Shown here: one piece after another, positions 42,454 to 49,188 of the stretch | How positions within the stretch are numbered: position 1 is the stretch's first letter | Layout: each line of letters begins with the position of its first letter | Source of the DNA: Thermoplasmata archaeon | GTDB taxonomy: Archaea > Thermoplasmatota > Thermoplasmata > Halarchaeoplasmatales > Halarchaeoplasmataceae | Length of the DNA: 49,190 nucleotides | NCBI GenBank assembly: GCA_019594025.1 | Contig: JAFDUB010000001.1 | Location: 1 to 49,190 of the forward strand | Direction of reading: 5' to 3' | The notes under the pieces: generated by a model | Told to the model about the DNA's origin: nothing | Seen by the model: only the letters and a program-made list of their open reading frames with translations | Databases searched by the model: none | Translations under genes and position numbers: made by a program

Positions 42454-43314
42454 ATGGGATACAGAAGTAAAACCCTAGGTATATTCGCCTTTATGATCGT
42501 ATTCTTCATACTAGTCGGTTATCTGATAGGCCAGTTTTTCATGGGTGACTGGATCCTGGGTTCGATAATGTTCCTGGGAATCGCCGGTCTGTTCAACGCC
42601 GTGGCCTATTTCTACAGCCATAAATTCATTTTGAAAGCATACCGGGCGAAGGTGGTAGATGAAAATGAAGCCCCTCGTTTGTACAACATTGTAAAACAGG
42701 TCGCCTTCGAGGCTGATATCAAAATGCCGAAGGTGGCTGTAATGCCCATGTCGATACCCAACGCCTTCGCTACCGGTCGCAACGAAGATAACGCCGTCGT
42801 GGCAGCCACCGAAGGACTCCTTTCTCGCCTTAACGACGAAGAGTTGAAGGGTGTTATCGCACACGAGGTTGCTCATATAAAGAACAGGGATATGCTGGTA
42901 ATGAGCGTCGCAGCCACACTTGCAGGAGCTATCGCCTTTATGGCTAGAATGGCCTGGTTCCAGCTGTTCTTCGGAAGAAGAAGAGGTAACCCCATTTTAT
43001 TGGTCGCGTTGATACTAGCGCCCATAGGGGCTATAATAATCAAAATGACAATTTCACGTAAAAGGGAGTACTACGCCGACGAACAGGGTGCTCGTATATC
43101 TAAAAATCCTAACGCACTAGCGGATGCCCTTGAAAAGCTGCACTCCGAAAACAAAAGAAACCCCATCCGGAAAGGTAATCCCACAACAGCATCCCTATTC
43201 ATAGTTAATCCGTTTAAAACCGGCGGCTTCGTTAATCTATTTTCTACCCACCCTCCCATGGAAGAACGGGTTAAGCGGTTGAGAGAGATGGCCGCTGACT
43301 TCAGTTATCTGTAG
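42454..43314 (+). CDS. htpX: Membrane zinc metalloprotease HtpX (M48)
   Basis: 286 aa with N-terminal TM helices, the HEVAHIKNRD (HExxH) motif and the downstream EYYAD glutamate. Confidence 0.9.
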   Translation: MGYRSKTLGIFAFMIVFFILVGYLIGQFFMGDWILGSIMFLGIAGLFNAVAYFYSHKFILKAYRAKVVDENEAPRLYNIVKQVAFEADIKMPKVAVMPMSIPNAFATGRNEDNAVVAATEGLLSRLNDEELKGVIAHEVAHIKNRDMLVMSVAATLAGAIAFMARMAWFQLFFGRRRGNPILLVALILAPIGAIIIKMTISRKREYYADEQGARISKNPNALADALEKLHSENKRNPIRKGNPTTASLFIVNPFKTGGFVNLFSTHPPMEERVKRLREMAADFSYL

Positions 43315-43432: not shown

Positions 43433-44362
43433 ATGGTAACGTGTTCAGCTCCTGGTAAAGTTATCCTTTTCGGCGAACATGCGGTAGTTTATGGAGAACC
43501 AGCTGTAGCTATAGCCATCGATAAACGCTTTCGATGCGCGATGTACCCCGCTGATGGGGACGTAACCACGGTTAACGGACTTGTTTTCGATCCTGAGAAG
43601 CAAAATTACCTAAATTGTGCCATGGAAAAACTAGGGGTAACTGAAAAGTTGGACATATACACTTCTACCGAGCTTATAAGCGGGGCCGGCATGGGCTCTT
43701 CCGCAGCCGTTACCGTAGCATCTCTAAGATGTTTATACGAGATGATGGAATCGGTTGATAAAGAGACGCTCGCTAAAACGGCCTTCGAGGTGGAATACAA
43801 AGTCCAGGGGAACGCGAGTCCTATAGACACCTCTACTTCTACCGAAGGTGGTGGAATAGTGGTATCATCTACCAAAGGACCGGGTTTTCTTTGGGATATC
43901 AATAAAGGCGATAAAACCTGGAATATACACAAAAGTGATATCCCAAAATTGAAGCTGGTCTTGGGAAATACCGGTGTTCACTCTCCGACTGGAAAATTGG
44001 TCGCTAAGATCAAGGAGTTTTATAAACGGAGCAGTTACGCTAGAGATATAATAAACGAGGTGGGTGTTTTGGTAGAAAGGGGTCACGAGGCCCTGAAAAC
44101 CGAAGACCTAGTCGAAGTAGGCCGCTTGATGGATCAAAATCAACGCCTCTTATCTTGTTTGGGGGTAAGTCATCCAAAACTTGACATCCTCATCGATGCC
44201 GCAAGAAAACACTCTTACGGAGCGAAACTGACCGGTGTAGGAGGCGGCGGTATCATGATGGCCCTTACGGATGAACCGGAAGAGACAACTAAGGCTATCG
44301 AAGAGGCCGGTGGACAGGCATATATATTGACGTCCACTAACAAGGGGCTCACATTCAAATGA
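43433..44362 (+). CDS. mvk: Mevalonate kinase (archaeal type, GHMP family)
   Basis: 309 aa. The N-terminus is MVTCSAPGKVILFGEHAVVYGEPAVAIAI. Motif II is SGAGMGSSAAVTVA, the catalytic-Asp block is QGNASPIDTSTSTEGG and motif III is KLTGVGGGG. Confidence 0.85.
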   Translation: MVTCSAPGKVILFGEHAVVYGEPAVAIAIDKRFRCAMYPADGDVTTVNGLVFDPEKQNYLNCAMEKLGVTEKLDIYTSTELISGAGMGSSAAVTVASLRCLYEMMESVDKETLAKTAFEVEYKVQGNASPIDTSTSTEGGGIVVSSTKGPGFLWDINKGDKTWNIHKSDIPKLKLVLGNTGVHSPTGKLVAKIKEFYKRSSYARDIINEVGVLVERGHEALKTEDLVEVGRLMDQNQRLLSCLGVSHPKLDILIDAARKHSYGAKLTGVGGGGIMMALTDEPEETTKAIEEAGGQAYILTSTNKGLTFK

Positions 44363-44403
44363 ACCGTATATTAACAGTGGTGTAGTGCCCTAAATCCACA
44401 ATG

Positions 44404-44411
44404 TTTAAATA
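44404..44411 (+). promoter_or_regulatory. TATA box (TTTAAATA) internal to the mevalonate cluster
   Basis: It lies 54 nt upstream of the ATG at 44465, which has a GAGGT Shine-Dalgarno sequence. This suggests a separate transcription start for the downstream five genes. Confidence 0.4.
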
Positions 44412-44464
44412 TCATACATCTCACTCTTTATCAGCACGTACATATAATGGCCAGAGGTTAAAAT

Positions 44465-45391
44465 ATGATAGAAGGAAAAGGTTATGGAAAATGTATACTT
44501 TTTAACGAACATTTTGTTGTGTATAACATACCGTCGATCGTTTCAGCTATCGGAGACTATACGTTAGCAACGGTGGAGGCTACCGAGTCAGGGGGAGTTC
44601 GATTGATCGATGATCGACCTGCTACCCCCGGTTACAAGGAGGGAAAGTTGGAGCATCAAAAGGATTCTCTCCGCCGTATTTTGGAGGCCATGGGTATAGA
44701 TTCCGATGAAAATCTGAAGATCACGTTGGGCGGGACCCTTTACTGTGCTTCCGGTGTCGGAGCATCGGCAGCTTCCTGTACAGCGATCGCCAGGGCGCTT
44801 AACCGGTACTTCGATATGGGGATGGATGATGATCAAATCAATGAAATCGCATATGAAGGGGAGAAGGGCTATCACGGAACGCCCTCGGGAGTGGATAACG
44901 CTGCTTCAACTTACGGCGGACTGATATGGTTTGTAAGGGGTGAAGAGAACACCTTTGAGCCCATATCGTTGAAGGAACCTGTGGAGATTGTCATGGGAAA
45001 TACCGGTAAGGTGGCCAATACCAAAGCTGCGGTCGCTGGGGTGAGGGAGCGAAAAGAGAAATACCCTGAGAAGTACGAAGAGATATTCGAAAAAGCAAGA
45101 AAACTTGCACACGATGCTCGAGAAGCTTTAGAGGCACAGGACACAAAAAAAGTTGGAGAACTGATGAACCGCAATCATTCGCTGCTGCAGGATATCGAGG
45201 TGTCCGATGAGGATCTGGATATGCTGGTCGAAACCGCACGCTCCGCCGGTGCGGTAGGTGCAAAGATGACCGGCGGTGGACTGGGAGGTTATATGGTAGC
45301 ACTTACTCCCGGGAAAAAGCTGCAGGAGGCGGTGGCCAAGGCTATGGAAGATAAGGGATTCAGGGTCCTGCGAACGAGGATAGGAGTTTAA
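44465..45391 (+). CDS. Second, divergent GHMP kinase (mevalonate-kinase-like paralog)
   Basis: 308 aa. Motif I variant is GKCILFNEHFVVYN, motif II variant is ASGVGASAAS, the Asp block is HGTPSGVDNAASTYGG and motif III is KMTGGGLGGYMVAL. The gap to the UbiD gene is 8 nt. Confidence 0.7.
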   Translation: MIEGKGYGKCILFNEHFVVYNIPSIVSAIGDYTLATVEATESGGVRLIDDRPATPGYKEGKLEHQKDSLRRILEAMGIDSDENLKITLGGTLYCASGVGASAASCTAIARALNRYFDMGMDDDQINEIAYEGEKGYHGTPSGVDNAASTYGGLIWFVRGEENTFEPISLKEPVEIVMGNTGKVANTKAAVAGVRERKEKYPEKYEEIFEKARKLAHDAREALEAQDTKKVGELMNRNHSLLQDIEVSDEDLDMLVETARSAGAVGAKMTGGGLGGYMVALTPGKKLQEAVAKAMEDKGFRVLRTRIGV

Positions 45392-45399
45392 AAGGTGAT

Positions 45400-46716
45400 G
45401 TGATGCATCTTAGACCATTTTTAAATAAGCTGGAAAAAGAAGGAAAATTGTTACATGTTGATAAGGAAGTTGACCACAAATACGAAGTTGCCAGTGTGAT
45501 GAATTCTTTGGAAGAGAGACCCACCATTTTTGAAAATATAGAGGGTTTCTCGTTCCCGGTCTTCGGAGGTATCACATCGAATAGAGACTTGATCGCCGAG
45601 AGTATGGATACTAGCAAGGAGATGCTTATGCCTAAACTTGTGGAAGCTCTGCGTAATCCCATAGAGTGCGATGTAGTCTCGGAGGCACCCTGTCAGGAAG
45701 TGGTGTTGAAGGGTGATGAAGTTGATCTGGATATGCTGCCCATGCTGCACCATCTCCCAGGTGACGGTGGTAGGTACGGAACTGCAACCGTAGCTGTGAT
45801 CAAAGACCCGGATACAGGCAGGAACGCTTCGTATCATAGGATAATGCAGGTGGGAAAAAATAGATGCACAGCTAGATTGATACCAAAAAGGCAGACTAGG
45901 ACTACCTACGATAAAATCGACGGCGATCTTGAAATGGCTATTTGCGTCGGTAACTCGGTACAGGTGATGATAGCTGCTTCACTAGGCCCTCCTTCCGAAG
46001 TGGACGAACTAGAGATCGCCAATTCTCTCGACGAAACTCCTTTGGTCAAATGTATCACAAAGGATCTGGAGGTTCCTGCACAGTCGGAATTCGTATTGGA
46101 AGGAAGGATCACACGCGAACTCGATAGGGAAGGTCCTTTTGTTGATCTAACCGAGACTAGGGATATAGAGCGTCAGGAGCCTGTTTTTGTGGTCGATTGC
46201 ATAACACATCGCAGGGACGCAATGTGGCAGATGTTGTTGCCCGGGAGGATGGAGCACAAGATACTGATGGGTATGCCCAAGGAGCCAACTATTTACGACA
46301 AGGTCTCTCAGGTGGCTAACTGTAAAAACGTGCTGATCACTTTAGGCGGCGGCTCTTGGCTACACGGTATAGTACAGATAGAAAAAGAAGGTCCTAAAGA
46401 TGGCAAAAAAGCTATAGAGGCCGCCTTCAAAGGCCACGGCTCCATGAAGCACGTAGTGGTGGTGGATGAAGACGTCGATATTTACGATCATCTAAAAGTC
46501 GAGTGGGCTATTGCTACCCGTTTTCAGGGAGACAAAGATCTAGTGATACTGCCCGATCAACCTGGCTCTTCACTGGATCCAAGCGGCGATCACTCTGGTA
46601 AGAAGACGAAGACCACAAAGGTTGGTGTGGACGCCACCATCCCGAAGGATGTTGATCCTACGAAATACAAGAAGGAAACATACGAGGAAGTCGATGTAGA
46701 TGATTACCTGCGGTGA
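45400..46716 (+). CDS. UbiD-family decarboxylase, probable anhydromevalonate phosphate decarboxylase (AMPD)
   Basis: 438 aa with a UbiD-like N-terminus (LRPFLNKLEKEGKLLHVDKEVD...PTIFENIEGFSFPVFGG). Its context lies between the MVK genes and AcnX. The ORF track start is GTG at 45400, but the ATG at 45403 is more likely. Confidence 0.78.
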   Translation: MMHLRPFLNKLEKEGKLLHVDKEVDHKYEVASVMNSLEERPTIFENIEGFSFPVFGGITSNRDLIAESMDTSKEMLMPKLVEALRNPIECDVVSEAPCQEVVLKGDEVDLDMLPMLHHLPGDGGRYGTATVAVIKDPDTGRNASYHRIMQVGKNRCTARLIPKRQTRTTYDKIDGDLEMAICVGNSVQVMIAASLGPPSEVDELEIANSLDETPLVKCITKDLEVPAQSEFVLEGRITRELDREGPFVDLTETRDIERQEPVFVVDCITHRRDAMWQMLLPGRMEHKILMGMPKEPTIYDKVSQVANCKNVLITLGGGSWLHGIVQIEKEGPKDGKKAIEAAFKGHGSMKHVVVVDEDVDIYDHLKVEWAIATRFQGDKDLVILPDQPGSSLDPSGDHSGKKTKTTKVGVDATIPKDVDPTKYKKETYEEVDVDDYLR

Positions 46717-47017
46717 TGGTAGATATAGGGTTTGGTTAAAAACTCGAAAGATAGGTAAAGATCGTTTGTATATACTTGGAGGTGGTGAAACACCCCACAT
46801 AGGTAGTATGGTGGTAAAAAAACCGGGTAAGGATGTTCGGAGTATGATTCTTGAAGATCATAAAGACCACCTTGTTATGGAACCGATAGCTGAGAAAGCT
46901 TCCGACAAGTACGGTATCACGGCCGTGGTCGTGGGAGGCATCCATATAGAGGATGCTACGGAAGAAGAGATAGAGATAATAGTTAAAAATTGTAAAGAGT
47001 TGATGAAATGTATCTGA
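46700..47017 (+). CDS. Small ORF coupled to UbiD; possibly an LpdD-like prenyl-FMN chaperone or accessory subunit
   Basis: 105 aa. It overlaps the UbiD 3' end by 17 nt and the AcnX 5' end by 10 nt. The ILGGGETPHIGSMVV motif resembles what I recall of LpdD-type proteins, which I could not verify. Confidence 0.45.
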   Translation: MITCGDGRYRVWLKTRKIGKDRLYILGGGETPHIGSMVVKKPGKDVRSMILEDHKDHLVMEPIAEKASDKYGITAVVVGGIHIEDATEEEIEIIVKNCKELMKCI

Positions 47018-48195
47018 CCAAAGAAGAAGAGGGTATCTTAGAAGGAGAAAAAGGTCCCGTGCTTGAAAAATTGATGCGGCTGCTCGCCCGTCTCGGAGAC
47101 ATATATGGAGCGGAAAAGATGATCCCAGTGGGGTCAGTACAGGTTTCGGGAGTATCCTACAAGTCCGTCGGTGATCCTGGGCTCGCCTTTCTCGAGGATA
47201 TGGCATCCAAAGGAGCAAAGGTATCGGTCCTCACCTTTTTGAATCCCGCAGGGATGGACCTGGAGGACTGGGAAAAGATCGGCTTTCCACAGGATTTTGC
47301 GAAAAAACAGCTTAAGATCATGAACGCATTCAAGAAGATGGGTATCGTGGTTACATCAACATGCACTCCTTACTTAGCAGGTAATCTACCGCGGTTCAGA
47401 GAACACATAGCTTGGTCCGAATCCTCCGCAGTTTCTTTCGCCAACTCAGTAATATCTGCTCGAACCAATCGTGAAGGTGGGCCGAGTGCGCTAGCCGCCG
47501 CCGTACTGGAGAAAACACCTGAGTACGGACTGCATTTGGACGAGAATAGAAAGCCCGACGTATTGGTGGATGTATCCTGTAAGATCGAATCCGATGCAGA
47601 TTTTGGGGCCTTGGGTTGGTACATCGGTAAATCGGTGAAGAGTAAAATACCTTACTTCAAAGGACTACCGTCTTGGAGTACGACGGACGATCTAAAAGCG
47701 CTGGGTGCTGCCATGGCGGCTTCGGGTGCGGTAGCGCTGTACTATGCTGAAGGGTTGACACCCGAAGCACATCTTCAGGATGTTTCAGATATAGAAAAAA
47801 TAACGGTCGAGGAGGAGGACATGAAAGAGACCTATGCGGCACTGAATTCGGGTGAAAAGCCCGATATAGTTATCTTAGGCTGCCCCCACGCTTCGATCAG
47901 AGATATTCAGAAAGTTGCCTCATTGGTCAACGGTAAAAGTCTTAAAAAACCACTGTGGGTATGCACTTCACGGGTGATGAAAGAAGCGGCTGATCGTATG
48001 GGATATACTGATGTAATAGAGGAGGCTGGAGGTCGGATCGTGGCGGACACCTGTATGGTGGTTTCACCGATAGAGTCCATGGGATATGGGACCACTGGAT
48101 GCAGCTCCGGAAAGGCCGCTCAATATCTACCAGGCTTCTGTAAGCAGAAGGTTGTATTCAACTCCATCGAATCATTGATCAAGGAGGTGTTATAG
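47008..48195 (+). CDS. Aconitase X catalytic subunit (DUF521), probable phosphomevalonate dehydratase large subunit
   Basis: 395 aa. The N-terminus MYLTKEEEGILEGEKGPVLEKLMRLL is typical of AcnX. Conserved Cys-containing blocks are TSTCTPY, LGCPHAS and DTCMVV. Confidence 0.85.
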   Translation: MYLTKEEEGILEGEKGPVLEKLMRLLARLGDIYGAEKMIPVGSVQVSGVSYKSVGDPGLAFLEDMASKGAKVSVLTFLNPAGMDLEDWEKIGFPQDFAKKQLKIMNAFKKMGIVVTSTCTPYLAGNLPRFREHIAWSESSAVSFANSVISARTNREGGPSALAAAVLEKTPEYGLHLDENRKPDVLVDVSCKIESDADFGALGWYIGKSVKSKIPYFKGLPSWSTTDDLKALGAAMAASGAVALYYAEGLTPEAHLQDVSDIEKITVEEEDMKETYAALNSGEKPDIVILGCPHASIRDIQKVASLVNGKSLKKPLWVCTSRVMKEAADRMGYTDVIEEAGGRIVADTCMVVSPIESMGYGTTGCSSGKAAQYLPGFCKQKVVFNSIESLIKEVL

Positions 48196-48591
48196 ATGGG
48201 GCGTATGATATCTCCGGGTAAGGCAACGGCCGACGCCATCGTGTCTGATGAGCCCATAGGATTCTACGGAGGTGTGGATATCGAAACAGGTATCGTCATC
48301 GAGAGGGGGCATCCGTTGGAAGGGGAATGTGTTACAGGAAAAGTACTCGTGTTTCCCAGGGGTAAAGGCTCGACGGTGGGTTCGTATGTGATATATGGGC
48401 TGGAGAAAAACAACGTAGGTCCGGTAGCCATCGTGAACGAAGAAACGGAGACCATCGTGGCCACTGGAGCGATTTTGGCGGGCATACCCTGTGTGGACGG
48501 TATAGATATCTCAAGATTCAAAAGCGGAGATATATTAACCGTGGACGCCGATAAAGGTTCAGTAGAAAAGGTGGGGTCAAAGGGCCTTTGA
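48196..48591 (+). CDS. Aconitase X swivel subunit (DUF126), probable phosphomevalonate dehydratase small subunit
   Basis: 131 aa with EPIGFYGGVDIETGIV and GKVLVFPRGKGSTVGSYV. It starts immediately after the large-subunit stop. Confidence 0.85.
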   Translation: MGRMISPGKATADAIVSDEPIGFYGGVDIETGIVIERGHPLEGECVTGKVLVFPRGKGSTVGSYVIYGLEKNNVGPVAIVNEETETIVATGAILAGIPCVDGIDISRFKSGDILTVDADKGSVEKVGSKGL

Positions 48592-48672: not shown

Positions 48673-49188
48673 TTGATGAAAGAACGAGTGCAGACTAACA
48701 TTGAAGGTTTTGATGAATTGCTTAAAGGTGGAGTCCCAGAGGGTCATGTAGTATTGATATGCGGGGGCCCTGGTACGTTCAAGTCCAGCATCACTCTGAA
48801 TTTGCTTTCCAAACAGGTTAAGGGAAATGGTAAAAAAGCTCTTTACGTATCACTGGAGGAGTCTAAGGAGAGTTTGGAAGCTACGGCTGAAGGCTTGGGC
48901 ATCGATAAATGGGACGAACAGAACTTTCTATTAGCAGATGTGTCTAAGATTCGATTGGAGCAGACGGATGCAGGGAAGGCTCGTAACTGGATGAAGATCG
49001 TAGAGAAATATATCCGCAGAAGGGCGGAAGACGGTTTTGAGTTGATCGCTTTGGACTCGATGTCCGCGTTATATTCTTTGATGGAATTCGAAAATCCCCG
49101 GAAAGAGCTATTCCAGTTCTTTGGTTTTCTTAAGAGAATTTTGAAAAACCCCAATAAATATGGCACCAATTATGTAATCCAGATGTGA
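48673..49188 (+). CDS. KaiC/RecA-superfamily ATPase (single domain), apparently short
   Basis: IEGFDELLKGGVPEGHVVLICGGPGTFKSS (Walker A) and ELIALDSMSAL (Walker B). A TGA stop at 49186 gives only 171 aa, 2 nt before the window end. Confidence 0.7.
   Translation: MMKERVQTNIEGFDELLKGGVPEGHVVLICGGPGTFKSSITLNLLSKQVKGNGKKALYVSLEESKESLEATAEGLGIDKWDEQNFLLADVSKIRLEQTDAGKARNWMKIVEKYIRRRAEDGFELIALDSMSALYSLMEFENPRKELFQFFGFLKRILKNPNKYGTNYVIQM

Follow-up and report, generated by a model that had tools for sequence, protein, structure and literature searches.

In the trans-anhydromevalonate phosphate pathway, as characterised in Aeropyrum pernix and Methanosarcina mazei, isopentenyl units are made by way of mevalonate kinase (MVK), phosphomevalonate dehydratase (PMDh, an AcnX enzyme of type II), anhydromevalonate phosphate decarboxylase (AMPD, a UbiD-family enzyme) together with UbiX, and isopentenyl phosphate (IP) kinase. 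M. mazei MVK, a feedback-resistant enzyme, is the MVK used in this characterised archaeal pathway, and to our knowledge its gene is not part of an operon with those for AMPD and PMDh. In the MVK tree of a 2024 survey (PMC11052028), sequences of Asgard, DPANN, bacterial and eukaryotic origin share a mixed clade with "a few other" archaeal ones, and the catalytic and substrate-binding residues of the Leishmania major enzyme, including those of its complex with (R)-mevalonate, have been described by Sgraja et al. 2007 (PMC1851959). Here we examine a stretch of 49,190 nucleotides (the window; assembly GCA_019594025.1, contig JAFDUB010000001.1) from a soda-lake Thermoplasmata metagenome-assembled genome (MAG), the genus of which (denoted g1, in family f1) includes Candidatus Halarchaeoplasma halalkaliphilum. 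Two kinase genes follow one another on its forward strand, MVK1 (43433..44362, 309 aa) and the gene under study, MVK2 (44465..45391, 308 aa, ATG start), the latter heading an operon for the dehydratase and decarboxylase steps. We consider it likely that MVK2 is an intact, active MVK of a distinct archaeal subfamily, which arrived with this laterally acquired operon beside a native, Methanosarcina-type MVK1.

MVK2 scores 238.7 bits (235.5 bits in the profile scan of its own genome) and MVK1 210.7 bits against TIGR00549, the NCBI curated equivalog for mevalonate kinase (EC 2.7.1.36; cut-off 163.05 bits). GHMP domains are found in the N-terminal (PF00288, E 8.7e-15) and C-terminal (PF08544, E 3.7e-13) parts of MVK2, with all three GHMP motifs present, namely GKCILFNEHFVVYN at residues 8-21, GVGASAAS at residues 97-104 and KMTGGGLGGYMVAL at residues 267-280. 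MVK1, which likewise has both domains, carries GKVILFGEHAVVYG, GMGSSAA and ASPIDT. An earlier note made from the DNA sequence had described two kinases side by side, one with canonical and one with variant motifs, and both reading frames and the quoted motifs are found as it stated. The two proteins are 30% identical (BLASTP E 3e-30), and both their kinship and their family scores are far above chance level. Models for galactokinase, homoserine kinase and pantoate kinase score MVK2 far under their cut-offs, and the methanogen-type MVK model NF003036/PRK03926 (cut-off 403 bits) gives it 184.5 bits, also below cut-off, this being a narrow model under which even MVK1 stays at 230 bits. Among solved structures the best match of MVK2 is L. 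major MVK (2hfs; E 4e-66, 226.7 bits, 39.6% identity over 293 aa), ahead of the MVKs of M. mazei (116 bits), Staphylococcus aureus (97 bits), Streptococcus pneumoniae (85 bits) and human (78 bits); the impression, given earlier, that its C-terminal part is of bacterial appearance did not hold up against this trypanosomatid match. MVK1 in turn finds 8teb and M. mazei MVK 6mde as its best structural matches (E ~1e-47; M. mazei 1.6e-47); L. major MVK reaches no more than 69 bits.

The residues of MVK2 were mapped by a pairwise sequence alignment to L. major MVK 2hfs. As can be seen from that alignment, 14 of the 16 checkable L. major residues (K18, I20, E24, H25, V27, V28, S112, E144, S152, D155, R169, T198, V202 and K279) are identical in MVK2, while the two that are changed, S281 (T269 in MVK2) and T283 (G271), are graded conservative, the position of T283 being Ala in mammals (PMC1851959). 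The catalytic Lys/Asp pair, the Mg-binding Ser/Glu and the Glu-His of motif 1 are all kept, with K9, E15, H16, S101, E133 and D144 of MVK2 corresponding to K18, E24, H25, S112, E144 and D155 of the L. major enzyme. In the mevalonate pocket I11, V18, V19, S141, R158, T186 and V190 are identical to their L. major counterparts, and K267 also matches. The earlier remark that MVK2 keeps the catalytic Lys/Glu/Asp positions is borne out by the alignment of K9, E15, E133 and D144 with catalytic positions, and since all catalytic residues are present in MVK1 as well, neither kinase looks dead. MVK2 is predicted to be a mevalonate 5-kinase, converting ATP and (R)-mevalonate into mevalonate 5-phosphate. 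The motifs that set it apart from MVK1 are invariant or nearly so in 119 MVK2 homologues, reading G-[YF]-G-K-x-I-L-F-N-E-H-F-V-V-Y, A-S-G-[VI]-G-A-S-A-A-S-C and G-A-K-[ML]-T-G-G-G-L-G-G, and are therefore a subfamily signature and not a sign of divergence. MVK2-type proteins are 60-75% identical across the phyla sampled. Judged by its sequence, MVK2 is the typical form of a separate, old and widespread archaeal MVK subfamily, and the view of it as a divergent copy of the canonical mvk gene has to be given up.

The genes downstream of MVK2, all on the forward strand, account for its pathway context. The gap of 8 nt noticed earlier between MVK2 and a UbiD-LpdD-like-AcnX gene series is confirmed (45392-45399) and leads into a gene for a UbiD-family decarboxylase, presumed to be AMPD (45400..46716; UbiD N, core and C domains; TIGR00148, 359 bits). 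There follow the genes for an LpdD-like protein of 105 aa (46700..47017; PF21758, E 1.3e-24; PDB LpdD 8p4w, E 3e-4), for the AcnX large subunit of the phosphomevalonate dehydratase type (47008..48195; PF04412, E 8e-159) and for the AcnX small, or swivel, subunit (48196..48591; PF01989, E 8e-33; PRK03955, 169 bits with a cut-off of 163). The UbiD gene and the 105-aa open reading frame (ORF) overlap by 17 nt, this ORF and the AcnX large gene overlap by 10 nt, and the two AcnX genes adjoin with a gap of 0 nt. Between MVK1 and MVK2 there is a spacer of 102 nt (44363..44464), which contains a TATA-like TTTAAATA ~55 nt and a GAGGT 7 nt before the MVK2 ATG. A search for relatives in one genome per prokaryotic species returned 307 loci, the best 80 of which, from Thermoplasmatota, Theionarchaea, Hadesarchaea, Bathyarchaeota, Aenigmatarchaeota, Undinarchaeota and others, were fetched and compared. 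Within these best 80 the UbiD gene comes directly after the MVK2-type gene in 77, and the AcnX large and small genes lie downstream wherever sequence past UbiD is seen, except at one locus (L077) where only the start of UbiD was matched. The LpdD-like ORF is found in the operons of Thermoplasmatota and Theionarchaea and was undetected in those of the best 80 loci with a UbiD only ~45% identical, mostly from Hadesarchaea. The suggestion that MVK2 is the operon's own MVK is upheld by this comparison, in which it is the conserved first gene of an MVK-AMPD-LpdD-PMDh operon across the 80 loci.

Elsewhere in the source genome a UbiX gene is found on contig C7 and an isopentenyl phosphate kinase gene on contig C118, and no gene of the diphosphomevalonate decarboxylase (MVD) family was found in this 80% complete bin. 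The lack of such a decarboxylase, together with the presence of UbiX and IP kinase, therefore points to the archaeal route via anhydromevalonate phosphate. A Thermoplasma-type or haloarchaeal-type route was considered and dropped on the ground that no MVD-family gene was found in the 80% complete bin, and a role of an MVK as stand-in for a missing pantoate kinase was rejected, a separate pantoate-kinase-like GHMP gene being present on contig C71 (146 bits). The mevalonate 5-phosphate formed by MVK2 would be the substrate of the AcnX dehydratase, and the operon would supply three consecutive steps of the archaeal mevalonate route, MVK, PMDh and AMPD, with IP kinase and UbiX encoded elsewhere. 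A literature search that lacked wide coverage of subscription papers returned no description of the operon as a unit, of its transfer, or of two coexisting MVK types.

How the operon came to its present place can be read from the surrounding genes. The native left flank is an M48 peptidase gene (42454..43314, forward strand; PF01435, E 5e-37) and the native right flank a KaiC-like ATPase gene that runs past the window end (48673..49188, forward strand; PF06745, E 5.6e-24). None of the 18 genomes sampled from family f1 outside genus g1, G022 aside, has MVK2. An MVK1-type gene occurs in every one of them except one, mostly at 50-59% identity to the window MVK1, within the gene order M48-mvk-KaiC, the ancestral one for the family, or M48-mvk. 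Specifically, family-f1 genera without MVK2 have the M48 gene immediately ahead of their MVK1-type gene (L106-L112, L124, L125), and the KaiC-like gene directly adjoins MVK1 in two operon-less genomes, G012 and G008 (L106, L110). In genus g1 the order is M48-MVK1-[MVK2-UbiD-LpdD-AcnXL-AcnXS]-KaiC. This full order recurs in the genus mates G002 and G004, and a short contig of G001 shows MVK1-MVK2-UbiD; the arrangement is therefore not an assembly chimera. Copies of the operon-type AcnX large subunit are at least 70% identical, versus ~50% for the type native to family f1. In three sister-genus and two other-family genomes that were examined, the native-type AcnX pair (~50% identical) is found elsewhere, and the stretches fetched from those five genomes contain neither mvk nor UbiD nor LpdD genes. 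This type was not found in genus g1, where only the operon-type AcnX is present.

The phylogeny that had been proposed as a check was built from 74 proteins (IQ-TREE with a mixture model) and places the two paralogues in separate deep clades, MVK1-type and MVK2-type proteins being split at 96/96. The window MVK1 nests within family f1 (97/94) and its genus clade (100/100). The window MVK2 groups with those of its genus mates and of G022 and the C51 copy described below (100/99); within the operon clade the sister of this group is Theionarchaea (100/97). The best identities outside the family for UbiD, the small ORF and AcnX all fall in the same Theionarchaea loci, at 74-78%, 60-67% and 80-83% respectively. 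Nucleotide similarity to the operon copy of C51 and G046 extends from 44392 to 48533 of the window and so begins ~73 nt ahead of the MVK2 start codon, which places the left border of the transferred block near 44392. From the TATA-like box and the GAGGT upstream of MVK2, the block probably carries its own promoter. In view of the M48-MVK1-KaiC order of the sister genera, the trees and the AcnX types, the simplest account is an insertion of the operon directly after the native mvk gene. The whole operon would then have been acquired laterally, with Theionarchaea as nearest relatives and with a direction of transfer that we infer, and would have landed between the native MVK1 and the KaiC-like gene together with ~73 nt of upstream DNA; the native unlinked AcnX pair would have been lost and the native MVK1 retained. 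Horizontal acquisition of the second copy, one of the origins raised in the earlier note, is thus the one favoured by the insertion into a native M48-mvk-KaiC locus and by the position next to Theionarchaea in the tree. Between the window and G003 the synonymous divergence (dS) amounts to 0.5-0.8 in the operon genes and ~2 in MVK1 and is saturated in M48, a hint of an operon younger than its flanks, or exchanged within genus g1 after the species split.

A second copy of the operon occurs in the source bin on contig C51 (11,125 bp), in the order MVK2'-UbiD'-LpdD'-AcnXL'-AcnXS'-MVK1'. Most of its proteins are ~87% identical to those of the window, with LpdD' at 76% and MVK1' at 55%. C51 as a true second locus was set aside, its nucleotides being 99.3% identical to contig C117 and 97-99% identical to contig C76 of G046, a MAG of another species; with a bin contamination of 5.4%, C51 is most likely a co-binned contig of that related species. 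The two G046 contigs together imply M48-[operon]-MVK1', that is, an operon upstream of the native mvk. In the tree MVK1' groups with genus g7 (G010, G018), and MVK2' nests inside the g1 MVK2 clade. The operon lies downstream of mvk in g1 and upstream of it in G046, and the same native locus has therefore been joined at two different junctions in two genera, the operon having moved more than once. Mobile elements were observed near two of these copies. In G046 an ORF of 450 aa with an RRXRR stretch and an HNH motif, which we read as IscB-like, lies between MVK2 and UbiD (L017:9001-10353); it is missing from the near-identical C51 copy, and the insertion therefore looks recent. In G003, the closest relative, two ORFs of 124 and 403 aa, read by eye as TnpA and TnpB of the IS200/IS605 type, lie just upstream of MVK2 (L014:7-1589), between the contig end and that gene, with MVK1 at the end of another contig; this TnpA/TnpB-like element probably separates MVK1 from MVK2 in G003 and broke the assembly there.

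Most other carriers of MVK2 do with it alone. Ten further genomes were scanned whole (five complete Thermoplasmatota chromosomes, G046, two Theionarchaea and two Hadesarchaea), and in nine MVK2 is the only gene above the TIGR00549 cut-off, G046 having two. The complete chromosomes of G042, G044 and G045 give no match to the MVK model other than MVK2. Of 300 Thermoplasmatota genomes, sampled evenly and each at least 85% complete, 83 contain MVK2-type genes, 181 MVK1-type genes and 20 both. Families f6, f25 and f33 of this sample have MVK1 only, whereas family f31 has only MVK2-type genes, in 41 of its 42 sampled genomes; the genomes with both types include 12 of 12 in family f22 and 7 in family f51. 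The check proposed earlier, whether relatives carry both copies, can be answered: genus g1, the G022/G046 lineage, f22 and f51 do, and most genomes of the phylum sample have only one type. As an aside, neither MVK type was found at the thresholds used in any of the 21 sampled genomes of family f17 (0/21), which may fit a Thermoplasma-type route without MVK.

The persistence of both kinases in some lineages admits readings that bear on function. In one, which would add to the lateral origin proposed above, the two MVK subfamilies are unequal isozymes differing in feedback, kinetics, phosphoryl donor or partners (for example, MVK2 in a complex with AMPD and PMDh), and both are under selection; we regard this as a serious possibility, if one that falls short of being probable. 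No g1 genome has lost a catalytic residue in either kinase, the two genes are intact in the four other g1 genomes searched as well as in the G022/G046 lineage, and the ratio of nonsynonymous to synonymous divergence (dN/dS) among g1 genomes is 0.03-0.07 where dS is unsaturated, with MVK1 at 0.05-0.07 in the two genus pairs that have an estimable dS (most pairwise dS values being saturated, the estimates come from 17 of 27 gene-pair comparisons). In each of the five f22/f51 genomes examined the two genes have intact sites, and each of the two trees recovers one and the same monophyletic f22+f51 group, with branching patterns that broadly agree; the two types have therefore been passed on together since the common ancestor of these families. 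MVK2 stands alone in these five genomes. In G068 (f22) an MVK1-type gene lies ~2 kb from the AcnX large and small genes, followed by two ORFs read from their N-termini as IP kinase and type-2 IPP isomerase (L137:4929-11001); the MVK2 of this genome is solitary, in unrelated surroundings, so that the linkage of the window is reversed here. Either MVK type can be the pathway-linked one. A difference in regulation would agree with the insensitivity to prenyl diphosphates reported for methanogen MVK1-type enzymes (PMC9254496, citing Primak 2011 and Kazieva 2017). On the other side, one type suffices in most genomes (63 of the 83 MVK2-bearing and ~160 MVK1-bearing ones of the phylum sample), the substrate-binding residues are equal in both types, and two operon-bearing relatives show the decay that redundancy predicts: in G032 an MVK1-like gene (L119:3738-4652) has its catalytic Lys changed to Cys and its Asp to Ala, reads GNEAA in motif 2 and scores 119.8 bits against TIGR00549, and in G039 one lying directly upstream of MVK2, as in the window (L120:5673-6536), scores 158.7 bits, just under the cut-off. 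These relics, next to or near MVK2 operons, speak for a different reading, in which MVK1 became dispensable once the operon had arrived and is heading for loss, so that the two-kinase state is without functional meaning. A search with MVK1 in the operon-bearing G025, G026 and G030 (74% complete) returned only the MVK2-type gene or a weak GHMP match, in line with such loss, as is the presence of MVK2 only in the three complete chromosomes named above. MVK1 tip-to-family-root paths are somewhat longer in the two operon-bearing lineages (~0.55) than in the others (0.30-0.50). MVK1-type genes evolve ~2x as fast as MVK2-type genes of the same genomes, both here and in f22/f51, and the faster rate is hence not specific to the time after transfer. 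MVK1 has moreover been kept with intact sites and low dN/dS through the diversification of g1 (69-79% amino acid identity among species), and f22 and f51 have kept both genes since their common ancestor, and we think transient redundancy unlikely. The long-term coexistence suggests some division of labour. That there are two functionally distinct archaeal MVK isozyme families, kept by selection for differing regulation or module partnership, we put forward only tentatively; the lineages concerned would be genus g1, that of G022/G046, and families f22 and f51 from their common ancestor onwards. Were it true, one enzyme could, for example, be a feedback-insensitive housekeeping kinase and the other operon-coupled, regulated or channelling, and there would be an unrecognised control point in archaeal lipid-precursor synthesis.

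Two further explanations would change the identity of the gene pair itself. MVK2 might phosphorylate another intermediate, as a phosphomevalonate kinase (PMK) analogue or as a kinase for anhydromevalonate or mevalonate 3-phosphate, leaving MVK1 as the only true MVK, a role raised in the earlier note and suggested by its place next to dehydratase and decarboxylase genes; GHMP kinases have indeed switched substrates, PMK itself being thought to derive from MVK (PMC9254496). PMK models, though, give MVK2 scores far under their cut-offs (43.4 bits versus 500 for the archaeal NF040957, 57.1 versus 165.7 for the Gram-positive TIGR01220), the residues that in the L. major complex hold the carboxylate, the C3-OH/methyl and the C5-OH of mevalonate are retained, complete genomes with PMDh and AMPD, which need mevalonate 5-phosphate, contain MVK2 as their sole member of the MVK family, and the search of the 80% complete genome gave no decarboxylase to act on a diphosphate product. 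We consider this substrate switch very improbable. A recent tandem duplication of mvk, or an artefact of assembly or binning, could be suspected from the adjacency and shared direction of the genes and from a bin that is 5.4% contaminated and holds a second operon copy on C51. Simple recent duplication is excluded by the 30% identity and the 96/96 split, the same junctions occur in the independent MAGs G002 and G004 and partly in G001, and the likely contaminant is C51, 97-99% identical to another species' contigs, and not the window; next to no credence is left for this explanation.

Several observations do weigh against MVK2 as an active kinase acquired with its operon. The joint retention of both genes over long periods in g1, f22 and f51 is unexpected if MVK2 merely duplicates MVK1. 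The characterised relative, L. major MVK, is only 39.6% identical to MVK2, and the recombinant L. major enzyme showed low activity (PMC1851959). The GC content of the operon, 48.3% versus a genome mean of 44.5 +/- 2.3% (top 4.7% of windows), gives weak support for a foreign origin, and, the source bin being 80% complete, the absence of the native AcnX, PMK and decarboxylase genes leans partly on the genus mates G003 (92%) and G004 (94%).

On the native side of the locus two observations concern MVK1. Compared with M. mazei MVK it has an insertion of ~18 aa at residues ~146-175, around GPGFLWDINKGDKTWNIH, which is common to the MVK1-like genes of G032 and G039 and is therefore a lineage feature of Thermoplasmata MVK1. 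In G021 (family f1; 88% complete, 4% contamination) two M48-MVK1 loci lie on separate contigs (L124, L125), with MVK1 proteins that branch close together in the tree, and strain mixing or a true duplication may account for them.

Taken together, the enzyme class and the pathway are known, and what is mildly new is the operon beside a native mvk at two junctions and the recurrent, stable pairing of both subfamilies. The reading of the locus is thereby corrected, in that the odd-looking MVK2 would be the normal pathway kinase of a large part of the archaea and the canonical-looking MVK1 the one left over here. The archaeal mevalonate module (MVK-AMPD-LpdD-PMDh) appears to behave as a transferable operon able to take the place of native pathway genes that lie scattered. 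Feedback resistance is what methanogen MVK1-type enzymes are valued for, and the MVK2 subfamily offers an uncharacterised archaeal set of MVKs of interest to enzymologists and metabolic engineers; that whole families stably keep both types makes isozyme specialisation a concrete and testable question.

Compared with the Aeropyrum and M. mazei pathway, the window operon encodes the same MVK, both PMDh subunits and UbiD decarboxylase functions, but does so for three steps in one translationally coupled operon, with an extra LpdD-like gene, with a kinase of the MVK2 subfamily and as a transferable unit. M. mazei MVK (6MDE, 4HAC) agrees with MVK2 in predicted reaction, fold and catalytic residues; it is, however, the close relative of MVK1, which falls inside the M. 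mazei clade of the tree, and MVK2 matches the M. mazei enzyme only at E 1.7e-32 and sits in the other main clade (96/96). Nearer to MVK2 are the MVKs of L. major and Trypanosoma brucei (2HFS, 2HFU; PMC1851959), with which it has the motif variants EHFVV, G[IV]GASA and G-x-G-x-GG in common. The L. major enzyme has its catalytic Lys/Asp, Mg-binding Ser/Glu and mevalonate contacts, including the carboxylate-binding Arg, as in MVK2, and differs at Thr283, which is Gly, and Ser281, which is Thr, in MVK2. It is, on the other hand, eukaryotic, belongs to the classical pathway and stands in no operon, whereas MVK2 would feed the dehydratase/decarboxylase route and not PMK and diphosphomevalonate decarboxylase (DMD). 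Our tree puts L. major MVK beside a Promethearchaeota (Asgard) sequence within the large clade that also contains MVK2, and MVK2 probably belongs near the mixed Asgard, DPANN, bacterial and eukaryotic clade of the 2024 survey (PMC11052028).

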